Below are positions 54,125 to 63,778 of a DNA stretch of 64,000 nucleotides, one piece after another (within the stretch, counting starts at the first letter, position 1; each line of letters starts with the position of its first letter). Origin of the DNA: an uncultured Bacilli bacterium (GTDB lineage Bacteria; Bacillota_I; Bacilli_A; RFN20; CAG-826); NCBI GenBank assembly GCA_934168325.1, contig CAKPNG010000003.1, positions 918 to 64,917 on the forward strand, given 5' to 3'. The position numbers were made by a program, and so were the translations under genes. Below the pieces are notes generated by a model that saw nothing but the letters and a program-made list of their open reading frames with translations, did no database searches and had not been told where the DNA came from.

Positions 54125-56059
54125 TTATAATTTAATATCTTTATCTAAGATTTGATTTTGATATATATCTAATTGAGAATCTATTTCTAATTCTTTAAAT
54201 TGATTCATATATAAAGAATAATAATATCCTTTTTTATTCATTAATTCTTTATGAGTGCCGTTTTCTATAATATAGCCATCTTTCATAACAAATATTGAAT
54301 CACAATTAACGATAGTAGATAATCTATGAGCAATCATAATAGAAGTTCTACCTTTAAGCATTTTATCTATAGATGATTGAATTTTAGCTTCTGTTTCAGT
54401 ATCGATAGAAGAAGTAGCTTCATCTAATATTAATATAGATGGATTTCTAATTAATGCTCTAGCAAAAGATATTAATTGTTTTTGTCCTAAAGATAATTCA
54501 CTACCTCCATCTTTTAAATAAGTATTATAGCCATCTTTTAAGTTAGATATAAATTCATCAATATCTAATAATTTACAGATTGAAATTGTTTCTTCTTTAG
54601 TAGCGTTATGATTTCCATATCTTATATTATCTAAAATAGTTCCTTTAAAAATAAATGGAGTTTGTTGAACATACCCTATATTAGATCTAAGCCAACCAAC
54701 GGATCTTGCTTTATAATCTAAACCATCTATTAAAATAGTTCCTTTAGTAGGCTCATAAAATCTACATAATAAATTGACAGTTGTAGATTTACCACTTCCT
54801 GTTTCTCCAACAAAAGCAACACTAGTTCCTTCTTTAATAGTTAAATTTAAATCATGAATAATTTCAGTATCTTTATTATAAGAGAAGTAGATGTGACTAA
54901 ATTCAATATCACCTTTAATTTTTTCAAAATTTTCTACTTTATTATTAAAAATATCTCCATATTTTTCTATTACTTCAGGAGTGTCAACTAATTCTGGTTT
55001 AGTATCAAGTAAAGAAAACATTTTTTCAACGTTAGCTTGAGCATTCATTAATTCAGAAAATAGTTCACTAAGTTGTTTTAATGGATCATAAATTTGATTA
55101 ACAAATCCAATAAATTAAACTAAAGTAGCAGTATTAAAAGTAGTTTCTTTATTAGCTCCAAATATAGGGAATAAGATAATAATTAAAGCAGAAGTTAATG
55201 AACTAATAATAGAAATTATAGGATAAAAACTAGCACCAACTTTCATTGATTTACGTCTTTTAACCATGACATCATTCGTAATTTCTTTACTTTCTTCAAA
55301 TATTGTTTCTTCAATTGCTAAAGTCTTAATTGTTTGAGATCCATTAATACATTCACTAAGCCATCTAGCAAAATCACTATAAGCATTTCTAGCAATTCTA
55401 CTGGCTTTTAGAATGATTTTTTCAAAAAAGACGATGATAATGAAAACAAAAGGGGTAGTAGCTAAGATGATTAAAGATAGCTCCCAATTGATTGTAAACA
55501 TTGTAATAAGAGTAAAAAGTAATGCTAAAATAATCCAAAAAACATTGATCAAACTATTACCAACTATATCGCCAATATTACTAGCATCATTTTGTAATCT
55601 AGATATAAGCCAACCGCTAGGAGTCTTATCATAATAATTAAATGAAAGTTCTTGAATTTTCTTAAAAGCATCAGTTCTTAAACTAGTCATAATCTTCATA
55701 GCAAAGTAATTAGAAAAATAGAAAACTATAAAAATTCCAACACTTCTAATAAGAATCATAATTATATAAATTATGATGTAATTTAAGAAAGTTAAAGTAA
55801 AATTAAAACCTAAAATTTTTAGATTTAAATTAACTTTAAAAATGTCAGTATAAAAATTTAAATCGGTTTTACTAGCATTAATTAAAGCGGCATTCATACT
55901 AGGAACAAAACTAGAATCATAAAAAGAAACTGCCATTAGCCAAAAGATAAGTAAAATAATAAGAGGCCATAAAGGAAGTAAATATTTAAATACTTTTAAC
56001 CAAACTCTTAAATCTATTTTTTTATTTGTAGTTACATCTTTATATACATTCGTTGACAT
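54125..56059 (-). pseudogene. ABC exporter (fused TMD-NBD, type I) interrupted by a single in-frame TAA at 55115-55117
   Basis: The track splits it into 55115-56059 (TMD) and 54125-55048 (NBD: GETGSGKST, LSLGQKQLISFARAL, ILILDEATSSID). The 66 nt between them read in frame as FIGFVNQIYDPLKQLSELFSEL, which is the conserved TMD-NBD linker. There is no RBS before the internal Met. Confidence 0.7.
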
Positions 56060-56062
56060 AAT

Positions 56063-57886
56063 TTACACCATCTTTGTTTGAATATCATAGATCTTTTTAT
56101 ATAGACCATCTTTTGAAACTAATTCTTTATGATTACCAGACTCAATAATTTTACCTTCATCTAAAACAATAATTAAATCAGCATCTTTAGCAGTAGAAAT
56201 ACGATGCGTAATAATTAAAGTAGTAGCTTCTTTTTCATATTCCTTTAATGATTTTCTAATTTGAAAATCAGTTTCAGTATCAACAGCACTTAAAGAATCA
56301 TCAAATATCAATATTGGAGTTTTCTTTAATAAAGCTCTAGCAATAGCTAGACGTTGCTTTTGACCACCACTTAAAGTAGTTCCTTTTTCTCCAACAGGAG
56401 TATCATAACCATCTTTAAATTTATTAATAGAATCATCAATATGAGAAATTCTTGTAACACTTCTAACTTCTTCAAAATCAGTATCTTTATTAGTAATAGT
56501 GATATTTTCTTTAATAGTTTTAGAAAATAAGAAAGGTTCTTGTAAAACTATTGAAATATTATTTCTTAAACAATTCTTTTGAATATTTTTTAATTCAACT
56601 CCATCGATAGTAATAGAACCAGAACTATAATCAAATAATCTAGTAAGTAAATAAACTAAAGTAGATTTACCACTCCCAGTTTTACCCATAATCGCAATTG
56701 TTTGACCTTTATTTATCTTAAAAGATATATTTTTTAAAGTATCAATATTACTATCTTCATAATTAAAAGATACATTATTAAATTTTATATTACCTTTAAT
56801 ATCAATAATTTCACCACTATCAATATCTTCTAAAGGATAATCTAATAAGATATTAATTCTATCTAAACTAGCACTAGCTTGAGCTAAATTACTTAAAACA
56901 GTAGCAACATCTCTAATAGGCCAAACCATCATAGAAACAAAACTAAAACTAATAACTAAAGTACCAACACTAATTTGTTTAGTAAATATAAGATAAAATC
57001 CAAATATTGTAGTTAAAGCTATTTGACTAAAAACAAATATATCACTACTAGCAAAAAAGAAAGCAGATAGCCTTCTCCAACTTAAATATTTTCCTTTATA
57101 ATCATTTATATATTTATTAAAATCATTAACTTCATAAGCTTCATTATTAAAAGCTTTAACTAGTCTAACACTAGCTAAATTTTCTTCAATTTTACCAGTC
57201 ATTTGAGATTCAGAATCATCAGTAATACGATATCTTTTTCTAACGTCTTTTATAATAAAGAAACTATAAATAAACATAAAAGGCATTAAACACATTGAAA
57301 TAAGTGCTATTTTATAATTGGTTATACATAAAATAGTAAAAGATATAGCAACTATAAAGAATGTATAAACAATTAAAGATATATTAAAACCAAAGAATCT
57401 TTTTAAAACATCTTCATCTCTAGTACAAGTTTGAATAATATCACCTTTATTTAAAGATTTAATTGTAGAAAATGGTAATCTTTCAATATGATAGAAAAGA
57501 AGTTGTTGCATATTTTTACTCATTCTTGCCATAAAATCACTTCTTTGAAAGAATCTTATTAAAGATATTATTCCACCAATAATAGCAAATCCTAAAATAA
57601 TAACTGCAAACATATATAGATGAGTAGATAAAAACTTAATTCCACCAAATGAATTAATAAATAATTTTTCTAATATATCAATATCATTTAAATCTGTTAA
57701 TAAGATCTCTTTATTAAAAGATAAATTTAATCTACCTTGGGCTTCTAATATATCAACTAATACTTTAGTAGCATAAGTTGATAAAAGCATAAATAAAACA
57801 CTAAAAAACATTAAGATAAAATAAGTAATATATTCAATTTTACAATCTTTAATTAATAGATTTAAAGCCTTAACCATTTTCTTCAT
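56063..57886 (-). CDS. ABC exporter (fused TMD-NBD), probable heterodimer partner
   Basis: It has six N-terminal helices. The NBD has GKTGSGKSTLV, LSGGQKQRLAIARAL, ILIFDDSLSAVD and ITHR. The downstream partner gene starts 4 nt after its stop codon (stop 56063-56065, partner start codon 56057-56059). Confidence 0.85.
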   Translation of the reverse strand: MKKMVKALNLLIKDCKIEYITYFILMFFSVLFMLLSTYATKVLVDILEAQGRLNLSFNKEILLTDLNDIDILEKLFINSFGGIKFLSTHLYMFAVIILGFAIIGGIISLIRFFQRSDFMARMSKNMQQLLFYHIERLPFSTIKSLNKGDIIQTCTRDEDVLKRFFGFNISLIVYTFFIVAISFTILCITNYKIALISMCLMPFMFIYSFFIIKDVRKRYRITDDSESQMTGKIEENLASVRLVKAFNNEAYEVNDFNKYINDYKGKYLSWRRLSAFFFASSDIFVFSQIALTTIFGFYLIFTKQISVGTLVISFSFVSMMVWPIRDVATVLSNLAQASASLDRINILLDYPLEDIDSGEIIDIKGNIKFNNVSFNYEDSNIDTLKNISFKINKGQTIAIMGKTGSGKSTLVYLLTRLFDYSSGSITIDGVELKNIQKNCLRNNISIVLQEPFLFSKTIKENITITNKDTDFEEVRSVTRISHIDDSINKFKDGYDTPVGEKGTTLSGGQKQRLAIARALLKKTPILIFDDSLSAVDTETDFQIRKSLKEYEKEATTLIITHRISTAKDADLIIVLDEGKIIESGNHKELVSKDGLYKKIYDIQTKMV

Positions 57887-58139: not shown

Positions 58140-58634
58140 ATGAATATGCATTTAAGAAAAGAAGCAGTAGATATTATAACAAATATTTGTGCAAAGTATA
58201 AAAACGAACCATCTCCATTGATGTTAGTTTTATCTGAAACACAAAAAGAATATGGTTATATACCTTTAGAAGTTCAAGAGATTATCTCTAGTGAACTAGA
58301 TATACCAGTTAGTGAAATCTATGGTGTTGTTACTTTCTATTCATTTTTTAGTTTGACACCAAAAGGTAGATTTGTTATTGGAGTTTGTTTAGGAACAGCC
58401 TGTTACGTTAAAGGTGGTCAAAATATATTAGACAAATTCTCAGAATTATTAAAAATTAAGCCAGGTCAAACAACTGAAGATGGATTATTTACTCTTGATG
58501 CTCTTAGATGTATTGGAGCATGTGGAATTGCTCCAGCTATTTCAATTAATGGTAAAGTTTATCCTAAAGTTACCCTTTCTGGTGTAAAAAAGATAATCGA
58601 CGAATATCGTGAATTAGATAAGAAAGGAGCATAA
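58140..58634 (+). CDS. NuoE-like [2Fe-2S] subunit of a bifurcating-type [FeFe]-hydrogenase (HydC/HndA)
   Basis: It has an AGGAG RBS. The thioredoxin-like 2Fe-2S motif is VCLGTACYVKGG...LRCIGACGIAPA. The alternative ATG at 58146 has better RBS spacing. Confidence 0.8.
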   Translation: MNMHLRKEAVDIITNICAKYKNEPSPLMLVLSETQKEYGYIPLEVQEIISSELDIPVSEIYGVVTFYSFFSLTPKGRFVIGVCLGTACYVKGGQNILDKFSELLKIKPGQTTEDGLFTLDALRCIGACGIAPAISINGKVYPKVTLSGVKKIIDEYRELDKKGA

Positions 58635-58635
58635 G

Positions 58636-60513
58636 ATGGCTATTAAGAAATTTAAAACTGAAACTGAATTAGTTAGTGAACTTAAATCTTGTTCTAAATG
58701 TTTACAATCTAAATTCGATGGAAAAGATGGAAAAAGACATATCGTTGTTTGTGGTGGTACTGGATGTTTATCAAGTGATTCTCAAGCAATTATTGATAAA
58801 TTAAAAGCACTTATTAAAGAAAAGAAACTCGAAGATAAAGTAACAGTTAATGTTGTTGGTTGCTTTGGATTCTGTTCTCAAGGTCCTTTCGTTAAAATTT
58901 ATCCTGAAGATAGACTTTATCACGCTGTTAAAGTATCAGATTGTGAAAAAATTATTGAAGAAGATATTATTAATGGTAAATGTATTGAAGAATTATTATA
59001 TTTAGATCCTATAGTTAATAAAAAAGTCGAAAGACAAGATGATATTACTTTCTATAAAAAACAATTACGTATTGCATTACATGGTTGTGGAACTATTAAT
59101 CCTGAAGATTTAAAAGAAGCTTTTGGATATGATGCTTTTGTTGGATTAATTAATGCATTACATATGGATAGAAAAGAAGTTATCCAAGAAATGATTGATT
59201 CTGGATTAAGAGGCCGTGGAGGCGGTGGATTCTTAACTGGTAAAAAATGGAATTTTGCTTATTTACAAGAAAATGATACAAAATACGTCGTTTGTAATGG
59301 TGATGAAGGCGATCCAGGTGCATTCATGGATAGATCAATCTTAGAAGGTAACCCAGTATCAGTTATTGAAGGTATGATGATTGCAGGTTATGCAATTGGA
59401 GCAGAAAACGGATATTTCTATATTCGTGCTGAATATCCTATCGCTGTTAATAGACTTGCTAAAGCAATCGAAGAACTTCGTGCAGTTGGTTTACTTGGTA
59501 AAAATATTTTAGGAAGTAATTTTAATTTTGATTGTCATATTAGATATGGAGCTGGTGCTTTTGTTTGTGGTGAAGAAACAGCTTTATTAAATTCAATTGA
59601 AGGTAAAAGAGGTATGCCTAGACCTCGTCCACCATTCCCAGCAATTAAAGGTTTATGGGGTAAACCTACAATTATAAATAACGTTGAAACATTAGCTAAT
59701 GTTCCTTATATATTAAGAGTAGGTGCTAAAGAATTTAAAAAGATTGGTACAAAAAATTCGACTGGAACGAAGGTTTTTGCTTTAGGTGGTAAAGTTAAAA
59801 ATGTTGGTTTAGTTGAAGTACCTATGGGAACTACTTTACGTGAACTTGTTTTTGATATTGGTGGAGGAATTCCTAATAATAAAAGATTCCAAGCTATTCA
59901 AACTGGTGGACCAAGTGGAGGATGTTTAACATTAAGTGAACTTGATACACCGATTGATTTTGATAATCTTATTGAAAAAGGTTCAATGATGGGAAGTGGT
60001 GGCGCTATCGTTATGGATGAAGATAACTGTATGGTTGATGTCGCTAAATTCTATCTTGAATTTATTTGTGATGAATCTTGTGGTAAATGTTCTCAATGTA
60101 GAATTGGTACTAAAAGATTATTAGAAATCATTACTAGAATTACTGATGGTAAAGGAACTATGGAAGATATTGAAAAACTTGAAACATTAGCTCATTCAAT
60201 TCAAGTAGGATCTCTTTGCGGTTTAGGTCAAACAGCACCTAACCCAGTATTATCAACATTACATAAATTTAAAGAAGTTTATCTTAGACATATTAATGAT
60301 AAAAAATGTGATGCTGGTGTTTGTAAGAATTTAATTTCATACCATATTGATCCTGAAAAATGTAAAAAATGTTCTTTATGCGCTAGAAATTGTCCACCTA
60401 ATGCTATTAGTGGTGTTGTTGGTAAAGAACCATTTGTTATTGATCAAAATAAATGTATTAAATGTGGTACTTGTATAAGTGCATGTAAATTTAATGCTAT
60501 ATATAAAGAATAA
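58636..60513 (+). CDS. NuoF-like flavoprotein subunit (HydB/HndC): N-terminal 2Fe-2S domain, FMN/NAD(P)H site, N3-type 4Fe-4S, two ferredoxin-type clusters
   Basis: It has GLRGRGGGGF (FMN site), CNGDEGDPGAF (NADH site), ESCGKCSQCRIG, and the C-terminal CKKCSLCARNCP / CIKCGTCISACK clusters. Confidence 0.85.
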   Translation: MAIKKFKTETELVSELKSCSKCLQSKFDGKDGKRHIVVCGGTGCLSSDSQAIIDKLKALIKEKKLEDKVTVNVVGCFGFCSQGPFVKIYPEDRLYHAVKVSDCEKIIEEDIINGKCIEELLYLDPIVNKKVERQDDITFYKKQLRIALHGCGTINPEDLKEAFGYDAFVGLINALHMDRKEVIQEMIDSGLRGRGGGGFLTGKKWNFAYLQENDTKYVVCNGDEGDPGAFMDRSILEGNPVSVIEGMMIAGYAIGAENGYFYIRAEYPIAVNRLAKAIEELRAVGLLGKNILGSNFNFDCHIRYGAGAFVCGEETALLNSIEGKRGMPRPRPPFPAIKGLWGKPTIINNVETLANVPYILRVGAKEFKKIGTKNSTGTKVFALGGKVKNVGLVEVPMGTTLRELVFDIGGGIPNNKRFQAIQTGGPSGGCLTLSELDTPIDFDNLIEKGSMMGSGGAIVMDEDNCMVDVAKFYLEFICDESCGKCSQCRIGTKRLLEIITRITDGKGTMEDIEKLETLAHSIQVGSLCGLGQTAPNPVLSTLHKFKEVYLRHINDKKCDAGVCKNLISYHIDPEKCKKCSLCARNCPPNAISGVVGKEPFVIDQNKCIKCGTCISACKFNAIYKE

Positions 60514-60523
60514 GGAGACTAAT

Positions 60524-62305
60524 ATGGGAAAAATTACTGTTTATTTTGAAAACAAACCTTATTTAGTAGATGATAATTTAACTATATTAGAGGCTGCTAA
60601 AATTTGTGGATATAACATTCCTAATTTATGTACATGGAAAAAAGGAATGTGCTCTGTTGCTAGTTGTAGAGTATGTTTAGTTAAAGTAGAAGGAGAAAGA
60701 AGACTTGTTCCATCTTGTGCTTATCCTGTTAGAGATGGCTTAAAAGTATTTATTAGTGATCCTGATGCAGTTGTAGCTAGAAGAACTAGTGTTGAATTAC
60801 TTTTATCAAATCACTCTTTATCATGTCAAACATGTAGAAAAAACGGTAAATGTGAATTACTTGAAGTTTCTAAAAGAGTTGGAGCTGAACCTGATAAATA
60901 TTTAGGTGAAAAAACTAAAACTACATATGATGATGTCGCTCCAGGACTTATTAGAGATACTTCAAAATGTATTTTATGTGGTAGATGTATTTCAGCTTGT
61001 AAAGAAATTCAAGGTATTGGAATTCTTGGATTTGAAAAAAGAGGTTTCAATACTTTTGTTGGACCAAGTGAAAATAGATCATTTAATAATGTTCCATGTA
61101 TTCAATGTGGTCAATGTACATTAGTTTGTCCAACTGGAGCTTTAATGGAACATTCTGAAATTGATAAATTAGATAAAGCTTTCCAAGAAGGAAAATATGT
61201 TATAGTTCAAACTGCTCCTGCAGTTAGAGCAACTTTAGGTGAAGAATTTGGTGATAAAATTGGTACTAATTCCGAAGGAAAAATGGTTGCTGCTTTAAGA
61301 AGACTTGGATTTTACAAGGTTTTTGATACAAATTTTGGAGCTGATTTAACTATTACTGAAGAAGCTAATGAATTTGTTCAAAGAGTTATTACTCATCAAC
61401 CAATGCCTATGATTACATCATGTTCTCCAGGTTGGATTAATTATATTGAATATTATTATCCTGAACTTTTATCTCATTTATCAAGTTGTAAATCACCTCA
61501 TGAAATGATGGGAGCAATTATTAAATCATATTATGCAGAAAAGAAAAATATTGATAGAAGTAAGATTACTGTCGTATCAATTATGCCTTGTACTGCTAAA
61601 AAATATGAAAAAGAAAGAGAAGCTAATTCAGTTGATGGAATTAAAGATGTCGATATAGTTTTAACTACTAGAGAATTAGCAGCTTTAATTAGAAGAAGTG
61701 GTATTATTTGGAATAAATTACCTAATGAAAAATTTGATGATGATTTAATTGGTGAATCTAGTGGTGCTGCTGATATTTTTGGTGCTAGTGGTGGAGTTAT
61801 GGAAGCTGCAGTTAGAACTGCTTATAATATCTTAACTAGTGAAGAAATGGAACCAATTGATTTTACTCCTGTTAGAGGACTTGAGGGTATAAAAGAAGCT
61901 GAAATTTCTATTTTAGGAGCAAAATATCATTTAGCAGTTTGTAGTGGTATGAAAAATGCTAAAGTTTTATTAGAAAAGATTAAACATCATGAAAATAAAT
62001 ATGATTTCATTGAAGTAATGGGATGTCCTGGTGGATGTGTTAATGGTGGTGGTCAACCTTATGTCTATCCAGTATTCTTAGAAAATGAAGATGATAATAT
62101 CTTAGATACTTATGTTAGTAAAAGAGCTGCTGTTTTATATAATTTAGATAAAGCTAAAGAAGTAAGAAGATCTCATTTAAATAAAGATATTATTACTTTA
62201 TATAAAACTTATTTAGGAGAATATGGTTCACCTTTAGCTCATAAATTATTACATACTCATTATAATGCTCATCGTGAAAGATATCCTGATTTAAATAATA
62301 AATAA
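60524..62305 (+). CDS. hydA: [FeFe]-hydrogenase catalytic subunit, M3-type with accessory clusters
   Basis: It has an AAGGAG RBS, and the ATG at 60524 is in frame with the track ORF. It has an N-terminal 2Fe-2S domain, a His-ligated cluster (HSLSCQTCRKNGKCEL) and two 4Fe-4S clusters (CILCGRCISAC, CIQCGQCTLVCP). The H-cluster motifs are L2 MPCTAKKYE, L3 EVMGCPGGCVNGGGQP and an atypical L1 TSCSPGW. Confidence 0.9.
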   Translation: MGKITVYFENKPYLVDDNLTILEAAKICGYNIPNLCTWKKGMCSVASCRVCLVKVEGERRLVPSCAYPVRDGLKVFISDPDAVVARRTSVELLLSNHSLSCQTCRKNGKCELLEVSKRVGAEPDKYLGEKTKTTYDDVAPGLIRDTSKCILCGRCISACKEIQGIGILGFEKRGFNTFVGPSENRSFNNVPCIQCGQCTLVCPTGALMEHSEIDKLDKAFQEGKYVIVQTAPAVRATLGEEFGDKIGTNSEGKMVAALRRLGFYKVFDTNFGADLTITEEANEFVQRVITHQPMPMITSCSPGWINYIEYYYPELLSHLSSCKSPHEMMGAIIKSYYAEKKNIDRSKITVVSIMPCTAKKYEKEREANSVDGIKDVDIVLTTRELAALIRRSGIIWNKLPNEKFDDDLIGESSGAADIFGASGGVMEAAVRTAYNILTSEEMEPIDFTPVRGLEGIKEAEISILGAKYHLAVCSGMKNAKVLLEKIKHHENKYDFIEVMGCPGGCVNGGGQPYVYPVFLENEDDNILDTYVSKRAAVLYNLDKAKEVRRSHLNKDIITLYKTYLGEYGSPLAHKLLHTHYNAHRERYPDLNNK

Positions 62306-62597: not shown

Positions 62598-63778
62598 ATG
62601 ATAATTAGAGAAAAATACTTAAAAATGATTAGAGGCTTTTATGATAGTGATTTAGTAAAAGTTATTACTGGTGTTAGAAGATGTGGAAAATCTGTAATTT
62701 TAGAAACAATAATTAATGAAATTAAAGAAAAAACAGATAATGTTATATATTTAAATTTTGAAAAAACAAGTGATTTTTCAAAAGCTAGTAATGTAAATGA
62801 ACTAATTAATTATGTTAAAAGTAATAGAAAAGAAGGAAAATGCTATTGTTTCTTTGATGAAATTCAAGAGATTGATAATTGGCAAGTTGCAGTTAAAGAC
62901 TTAAGACTAGATAATTGCTCAGTTTTTGTTACTAGTTCAAATTCAAAGTTATTATCTAGTGAATTTCTAACTTTATTAAGTGGTCGATTTGTTTCTTTTA
63001 GAATTAGACCTTTTGTATATAAAGAAATAAAAGAATATTCTAAAGAACTTAATATCGATATTGATATAGCTAATTATTTAGTATGGGGTGGATTTCCTGG
63101 TAGATTTATAAATACTACAATTGATGAAACTAAAACATATTTAACTGATTTAGAAAATACAATAGTTATTAATGATTTAATTAAAAGATATAAGATTAAA
63201 AAAGAAGTAGCTTTTAAAAGATTACTAACTATATTTTGTGTAGTAATTCTAGAATTTTCTCAATTAGATCGATATATAAATATATGAAAAATGATTTTCC
63301 TGATGTTTCTTTATCTACAATTTCTAGATTCATCGAATATTTAAAAGAAGCTTATATAATTGATGAAATTCCTCAATATTCAACTAAAACAAAAAGAGAA
63401 TTAAAATATTATGGAAAAATATATGATAGTAATGTATGTTTTTCTTCTTTAAGAGCAAATAATAATCGATATGATTTAGATCATAATCTTGAAAATATTG
63501 TATATAATGAACTTCTTTATATGGAATATGATTTAAAAGCATTCGATAATAATGGTAAAGAAATAGATTTTATAGCTTCAAAAGATAATAAAACATATTT
63601 TATTCAAGTAGCTTATAGCGTAGCAAATGAATTAGCTTATGAAAGAGAAATGAGTGCTTTTGATAAGTTAGATAATCGAAGTCAAAAAATATTAATTACA
63701 AATGATATTATTGACTATTCAACTTCAGTTATTAGACATATTAAATTAATAGATTTTTTAATGATGGAAGATTTATAA
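62598..63778 (+). pseudogene. AAA_14/DUF4143-type ATPase disrupted by a 1-nt frameshift near 63227
   Basis: It has a GAGGTG RBS and the Walker A-like GVRRCGKSV. The track ORFs 62598-63287 and 63236-63778 overlap in different frames. Joining ...AFKRLL with NYILCSNSRIFSIRSIYKYMK... restores one ~393-aa protein of the usual length for this family. Confidence 0.65.

Follow-up and report, generated by a model that had tools for sequence, protein, structure and literature searches.

The window analysed here is a stretch of 64,000 nucleotides from an uncultured Bacilli bacterium (GenBank assembly GCA_934168325.1, contig CAKPNG010000003.1), and it carries hydA, the gene for the catalytic subunit of an [FeFe]-hydrogenase (60524..62305 on the plus strand, 593 aa, ATG at 60524). 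The first of the three active-site motifs of this protein, L1, reads TSCSPGW (61415..61435, plus strand; codons ACA TCA TGT TCT CCA GGT TGG). Its serine, Ser301 (codon TCT, 61424..61426, plus strand), stands at the position of Cys300 in the clostridial enzyme CpI, a ligand of the [4Fe-4S] cubane of the H-cluster. Very probably, this serine is a natural and long-maintained replacement of one of the four cysteines that hold the cubane in the protein. A serine-for-cysteine variant at L1 has already been described, with HydA1 of Acetobacterium woodii as the precedent, and most of the novelty is therefore gone. Serine ligation and activity are taken from the literature on A. woodii; the sequence, its conservation, the homology, the fold and the set of subunits and domains come from the analysis reported here.

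The L1 serine and its enzyme

A gapless alignment places Cys300-Ser301 of the window protein on Cys299-Cys300 of CpI. In CpI, Cys299 is the proton relay to the amine of the azadithiolate (adt) bridge, and Cys300, Cys355, Cys499 and Cys503 are the residues that bind the cubane. A previous sequence-only reading of this DNA had reported TSCSPGW at 61415-61435, had aligned it without gaps to the clostridial pattern and had assigned these roles to the two CpI cysteines. Re-reading of the codons and the translation gives the same motif, and the alignments to CpI and to A. woodii HydA1 are both ungapped around L1. The assigned roles are right as well, and the replaced residue is the one at the cubane ligand position.

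The remainder of the active site follows the standard pattern. Motif L2 (MPCTAKKYE, 61586..61612, plus strand) contributes Cys356, the counterpart of the CpI cubane ligand C355, and its residues P355, C356, K359 and K360 are nearly invariant in an alignment of 63 homologues. Motif L3 (EVMGCPGGCVNG, 62012..62047, plus strand) contributes Cys501, which corresponds to CpI C499, and Cys505, which corresponds to the bridging C503; E497, M499, C501, G503, G504 and C505 are conserved in the same alignment. Compared with the textbook set of TSCCPxW, MPCxxKxxE and ExMxCxxGCxxG, L2 and L3 match, whereas L1 differs at the ligand cysteine, as it does in A. woodii HydA1. The proton path is kept, with the relay Cys300 and the equivalents of CpI E279, E282, R286 and S319 all in place. 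The ligands of the accessory clusters (C36/C48/C51/C65, H97/C101/C104/C110, C149/C152/C155/C159 and C192/C195/C198/C202) are invariant or nearly so among the 63 homologues, and the earlier description of L2, L3 and the accessory-cluster cysteines as intact thus agrees with both the translation and the alignment.

Among solved structures, the closest is A. woodii HydA1 (7q4v_A; 590 bits, E 5e-176, 48% identity), a subunit of the electron-bifurcating HydABC(D) complex. In this protein (PDB 7Q4V/7Q4W/8A5E) the L1 region reads PMITSCSPGWIKF...HLSSCKSP, and the window serine falls on its Ser301 and on Cys299 of the enzyme from Thermoanaerobacter kivui. The two proteins are alike in the PMITSCSPGWI stretch, the SSCKSP segment, L2, the order of domains and the HydB and HydC partners, but differ in L3, which is ELMACPGGC in A. 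woodii and EVMGCPGGC in the window. Ser301 of A. woodii HydA1 was modelled as taking the place of a cysteine that ligates the H-cluster cubane (Cys299 in T. kivui), and the A. woodii HydABC complex has Fourier-transform infrared (FTIR) signatures and catalytic activities similar to those of the all-cysteine T. kivui enzyme (Katsyv et al., 2023, PMC10021017).

Modelled with AlphaFold2, without cofactors, the window HydA has a predicted local distance difference test score (pLDDT) of 90.4, and its best fold match is 7q4w_A, with template modelling (TM) scores of 0.92/0.94 at 48% identity. The fold is shared with T. kivui HydA1 (8A6T), Thermotoga maritima HydA (7P5H) and CpI (3C8Y, 4XDC) at TM scores of 0.86-0.92, and so are the cluster-binding residues, L2, L3 and the proton path. 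T. kivui HydA1 and CpI, however, have TSCCP in L1 and an all-cysteine cubane, in contrast to TSCSP in the window. CpI is also a monomeric, ferredoxin-dependent enzyme, whereas the window HydA belongs to a HydABC set.

Serine at this position is known from other sources, too. In the C170S variant of CrHydA1, the cubane is kept, the [2Fe] subcluster is accepted and catalysis takes place (Kertess et al., 2017, PMC5855289); the substitution is at the same ligand position, but this is an engineered single mutant, whereas the natural TSCSP enzymes have long co-evolved with their serine. TSCSPGW in L1 of a trimeric, confurcating-type HydA was remarked upon for the Melainabacteria proteins ACD20_9246_G0007 and G0010 (Di Rienzi et al., 2013, PMC3787301). 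Those copies additionally have isoleucine in place of an L3 cysteine, whereas L3 in the window is intact. For hydrogenases of the gut RFN20 and RF39 ‘Tenericutes’, the same ecological and taxonomic group as the window organism, H2 production was predicted, and some were placed in a separate cluster with differing positions in the active-site motifs; the available part of that paper neither identifies a serine ligand nor mentions maturases (Wang et al., 2020, PMC7301438).

The window enzyme classifies by sequence as a HydABC-type [FeFe]-hydrogenase (group A3, which NCBIfam calls ‘A6’), predicted to be linked to NADH and ferredoxin. According to its Pfam matches (PF13510, PF10588, Fer4, PF02906 and PF02256), HydA has the architecture of a complete long [FeFe]-hydrogenase of the clostridial type. 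The F-domain has sites for a [2Fe-2S] cluster, a His-ligated [4Fe-4S] cluster of the NuoG type and two ferredoxin-type [4Fe-4S] clusters. It is followed by an H-domain that covers the whole of the PF02906 profile (322 bits, positions 1-245 of 245) and by a small-subunit-like C-terminus (PF02256, 69 bits). HydA scores 784.4 bits with the family model NF040763, ‘NADH-dependent [FeFe] hydrogenase, group A6’ (cut-off 765), and 509 bits with the group A model TIGR02512 (cut-off 406).

A ribosome-binding site, AAGGAG, precedes the ATG of hydA, the upstream gene ends in TAA, and hydA closes an operon in the order hydC, hydB, hydA. The product of hydC (58140..58634, plus strand; 164 aa) is a NuoE-like subunit with a thioredoxin fold and a [2Fe-2S] site (PF01257, E 6e-49; NuoE/HoxE-family matches in NCBIfam). 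That of hydB (58636..60513, plus strand; 625 aa) is a NuoF-like subunit for flavin mononucleotide (FMN) and NAD(H) (PF01512, PF10589; TIGR01959 nuoF_fam, 461 bits), with an extra N-terminal [2Fe-2S] domain (PF01257, residues 31-109) and a C-terminal 2x[4Fe-4S] domain (Fer4, residues 570-623). The domain set of HydB and HydC is that of the bifurcating type, and their Pfam and NCBIfam matches confirm an earlier statement that HydA sits within a normal HydABC operon. Among 60 related loci, hydC is kept beside hydB and hydA in 58 and hydB in 59. When the open reading frames (ORFs) of these 60 loci and their flanking DNA (up to 6 kb, as far as the contig reached) were clustered, no conserved neighbour emerged beyond hydC, hydB and hydA.

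By homology, the complex would work like the HydABC complexes of A. woodii, T. kivui and T. maritima. The FMN of HydB would exchange hydride with NAD(H), and the ferredoxin-like C-terminal domain of HydB would interact with ferredoxin. Electrons from NADH and reduced ferredoxin would then be combined and run through the F-domain clusters of HydA to the H-cluster. There, the oxygen of Ser301 would serve as the fourth ligand of the cubane, as Ser301 is modelled to do in A. woodii HydABC, and Cys300 would still relay protons to the adt bridgehead. In a gut bacterium that ferments, the complex would be expected to form H2 from NADH and reduced ferredoxin.

Conservation, maturases and competing explanations

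The sequence-only reading had put forward three explanations of the motif: a serine-ligated H-cluster, a register shift that gives up the relay cysteine as in sensory enzymes, and a base-call error. Only the serine-ligated H-cluster, for which A. woodii HydA1 with its identical PMITSCSPGW provides the model, is supported by our results. An error in sequencing or assembly, or a recent inactivating mutation in a pseudogene in the making, might be suspected from the single step between TGT and TCT and from a source assembly that is a metagenome-assembled genome (MAG) of 87 contigs. However, TSCSPGW together with intact L2 and L3 is found in 120/120 of the nearest homologues (72-99% identity, from a collection of 5.8 billion proteins), which also answers the question, raised in that reading, of whether Cys-Ser is conserved in the lineage. 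Across 98 related, independently assembled loci from species-representative genomes, the Ser301 codon is TCA in 47, TCT in 39, TCG in 5, AGT in 4 and TCC in 3, and these codons include some that are two steps away from any cysteine codon. The use of five serine codons over 98 loci argues for selection for serine, and, the serine being old, the idea of a recent single TGT-to-TCT change does not hold. Because homologues and loci from independent assemblies conserve the serine, a base-call error is refuted. The hydA ORF is moreover intact with every other motif conserved, and a 99%-identical contig (L041) from the independently deposited MAG ‘Mollicutes bacterium SUG431’ shares the motif. Taken together, these observations make an error or a fresh lesion next to impossible. 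We also consider it very unlikely that the register has shifted so that Cys300 ligates the cubane and Ser301 is a bystander, with loss of the relay and a slow, sensor-like enzyme as the outcome. L1 is altered in the sensory enzymes of groups C and D, and cryo-electron microscopy (cryo-EM) leaves some room in the assignment of ligands at the resolution reached (PMC10021017). Nevertheless, the alignments to CpI and A. woodii HydA1 have neither a gap nor a shift, and the equivalents of E279, E282, R286 and S319, which would be purposeless without a relay cysteine, are all conserved. HydABC of A. woodii shares the motif and is reportedly an active bidirectional hydrogenase whose activities are similar to those of T. 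kivui (PMC10021017). Pfam searches found no PAS or other sensory or signalling domain in HydA, and the gene shares its operon with hydB and hydC rather than with regulatory genes.

A different kind of alternative is that HydA never receives its [2Fe] subcluster, so that HydABC would be an iron-sulfur and flavin oxidoreductase, for example an NADH:ferredoxin oxidoreductase, that performs no H2 chemistry and in which the serine has no bearing on hydrogen catalysis. In favour of this view is the apparent lack of maturases. Two [FeFe]-hydrogenase genes, hydA and a group B gene on another contig, are present in the source genome (1.69 Mb, 96.5% complete), but searches of it found no HydG, and for HydE and HydF just a generic radical-SAM match and GTPase-domain matches, respectively. 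A tblastn search of the same genome with the hydE-hydG-hydF operon of a Clostridiales MAG that bears a TSCSP HydA gave no match. Intact [FeFe]-hydrogenase genes are present in 30/41 sampled genomes of the genus and order, yet HydG, HydE, HydF and HypD are found in 0/41, and a wider search of the order, over 401 species genomes from 70 genera (299 of high quality), found HydG in none. Standing against this alternative, L1, L2, L3, the relay cysteine, the proton path and the L2 lysine are invariant in more than 100 HydA proteins from maturase-less genomes, which is hard to explain if no H-cluster is made. The second hydrogenase, of group B, is likewise kept intact, and some archaea and protists without maturases reportedly make or encode active [FeFe]-hydrogenases (PMC11216029). 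On balance, we regard a HydABC complex that lacks [2Fe] as improbable.

By analogy with A. woodii, we infer that the window enzyme would be matured in vivo and would have a serine-ligated H-cluster of normal activity, although several points weigh against this reading. A. woodii HydA1 is just 48% identical, and its L3 has MAC where the window has MGC. For A. woodii, the map comes from cryo-EM, and the Fe-O(Ser) bond in it is a modelled one, short of proof at atomic resolution (PMC10021017). CrHydA1 C170S matures slowly, with activities of about 9% (1 h of maturation) and about 32% (30 h) relative to the wild type (PMC5855289), and such slow and partial activity means that full activity of a serine variant is not automatic. 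Finally, HydE, HydF and HydG were not found in the source genome, nor HydG in the 401 genomes of the order or HydE and HydF in the 41 sampled, which puts the installation of [2Fe] in vivo in question. The window organism, a Mollicutes-like gut bacterium with a 1.7-Mb genome, differs in this respect from A. woodii, an acetogen that presumably carries the HydEFG maturases and also a HydD subunit.

The HydG search is effective among these relatives, as its matches in Clostridia demonstrate. Among the 28 genomes reached via TSCSP HydA loci, HydG is found in 0/23 small Bacilli but in 3/5 Clostridia, at more than 900 bits, and one of the latter (L121) has a full hydE-hydG-hydF operon. Nothing indicates that the missing maturases have to do with the serine, since TSCCP enzymes of the order share the gap and three of the five TSCSP Clostridia have hydG. 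A Hyp-based substitute for HydG was considered and rejected, HypD being absent from 41/41 relatives. A novel maturase among conserved neighbours was rejected as well, as the 60 loci have no extra conserved gene in their flanks of up to 6 kb. Hosts of [FeFe]-hydrogenases that lack the maturases have been documented among archaea and some protists, and an alternative pathway is suspected there (PMC11216029); in the literature searched, we found no report of maturase-less [FeFe]-hydrogenase hosts in this bacterial order. If the hydrogenases of this order are active in vivo, the lineage may install [2Fe] by an undescribed route that is independent of HydEFG, or may obtain [2Fe] from its neighbours, a tentative proposal to which we give slightly less than an even chance.

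Spread of the serine and co-varying residues

The serine is common among relatives of the window enzyme. About 140 of the nearest 50%-identity cluster representatives have a recognisable L1, which is Cys-Ser in about 22 and Cys-Cys in about 100; TSCSP thus makes up about one sixth of the nearest HydA clusters at this identity level. In a maximum-likelihood phylogeny of 145 H-domains, at least 12 changes between Cys-Ser and Cys-Cys are needed, three of them forced by strongly supported branches, compared with 33 changes expected for shuffled labels. Cysteine and serine have therefore switched repeatedly on the HydA tree.

The clade that contains the window enzyme comprises 24 sequences, with a support of 99 in the Shimodaira-Hasegawa-like approximate likelihood ratio test (SH-aLRT). 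Twenty-two of these are Cys-Ser and two are Cys-Cys (L021 and L024). Its members are Mollicutes-like Bacilli (relatives of Candidatus Onthovivens, Acholeplasmatales, Anaeroplasmataceae, Erysipelotrichaceae MAGs) together with Clostridia (Saccharofermentans and others). A. woodii HydA1 joins this clade at the next node, with moderate support (SH-aLRT 91). Within the order of the window organism, some families have TSCCP versions and others TSCSP.

We looked among other positions for residues that accompany the serine. The cysteine at the position of CpI Ala321, which lies in the SSCKSP segment of both the window and A. woodii proteins, was considered as a substitute ligand and rejected. Among the 50%-identity representatives, this position is alanine in four TSCSP clusters and cysteine in most TSCCP clusters, and an independent-pairs test found no association of the cysteine with TSCSP. 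The residue before the first L3 cysteine behaves differently. It is glycine or cysteine in 28/37 TSCSP sequences compared with 1/107 TSCCP sequences; in the window it is Gly500 (62021-62023), where TSCCP enzymes have alanine. The two TSCCP ‘revertants’ within the window clade, L021 and L024, both have alanine there. The change from alanine to glycine or cysteine in L3 may be a second-shell accommodation of the shorter serine side chain; the association is no more than suggestive, since just three phylogenetically independent pairs fall on supported branches and the comparison is underpowered once phylogeny is considered.

Two further kinds of HydA-like protein were noticed during these comparisons. 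One of the 50%-identity representatives, P0121, which is not from the window, is 4122 aa long and contains the HydA H-domain seven times in tandem, with an exact 444-aa period for six of the copies. Its motifs are MPCTVKKTE for L2 and EIMMCEGGC for L3, and it has no L1 of the TS..P.W form. This protein may be an artefact of repeat assembly or an odd multi-H-domain protein. In three loci from Anaeroplasmataceae MAGs (L070, L074 and L098), a further HydA-like gene of about 500 aa lies within about 6 kb of hydABC, with GTSCCPSW as L1, GPCSAKKLE as L2 and EGMACP(L/H)GC as L3.

Other genes and implications

The second [FeFe]-hydrogenase of the source genome lies outside the window, on contig C16 (locus L002, 862-2304, plus strand). 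It has 480 aa and belongs to group B (TIGR04105, 536 bits), with TSSCCPAF as L1, GPCTAKKQE as L2 and EGMACVGGCIGG as L3. Its gene sits between a fragment of an iron-type alcohol dehydrogenase gene and an arginase/agmatinase-like gene. Most genomes of the genus have such a pair of A-type and B-type hydrogenases.

Within the window, an ABC exporter gene (54125-56059, minus strand) is split by one in-frame TAA at 55115-55117 into a half for the membrane domain (55115-56059) and a half for the ATPase (54125-55048), and its adjoining partner gene (56063-57886, 607 aa) is intact. Either the gene is a pseudogene or its split is natural. Genetic code 4 was rejected as an explanation, the interrupting codon being TAA and the usage of stop codons fitting table 11. 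Just downstream of hydA, two overlapping ORFs (62598-63287 and 63236-63778, plus strand) resemble one frameshifted gene of the AAA-ATPase/DUF4143 type.

In the annotation of [FeFe]-hydrogenases, these results mean that TSCSPGW is no reason to mark a gene as defective or erroneous. A serine ligand of the cubane would be a common natural state and no peculiarity of A. woodii. The relatives of the window enzyme also offer a natural series of sister enzymes with TSCSP and TSCCP, for example L036 compared with L021 and L024, in which the effect of an oxygen ligand on cubane potential, catalytic bias and oxygen sensitivity could be studied.

The apparent absence of HydEFG across the order beside strictly conserved hydrogenase genes is more interesting than the serine variant. 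Models in the literature that place these gut bacteria among the H2 producers depend on a presumed maturation step. If the lineage does install [2Fe] independently of HydEFG or obtain it from its neighbours, the order would provide a large bacterial clade for testing the ‘missing maturase’ question that has been raised for archaea and protists.

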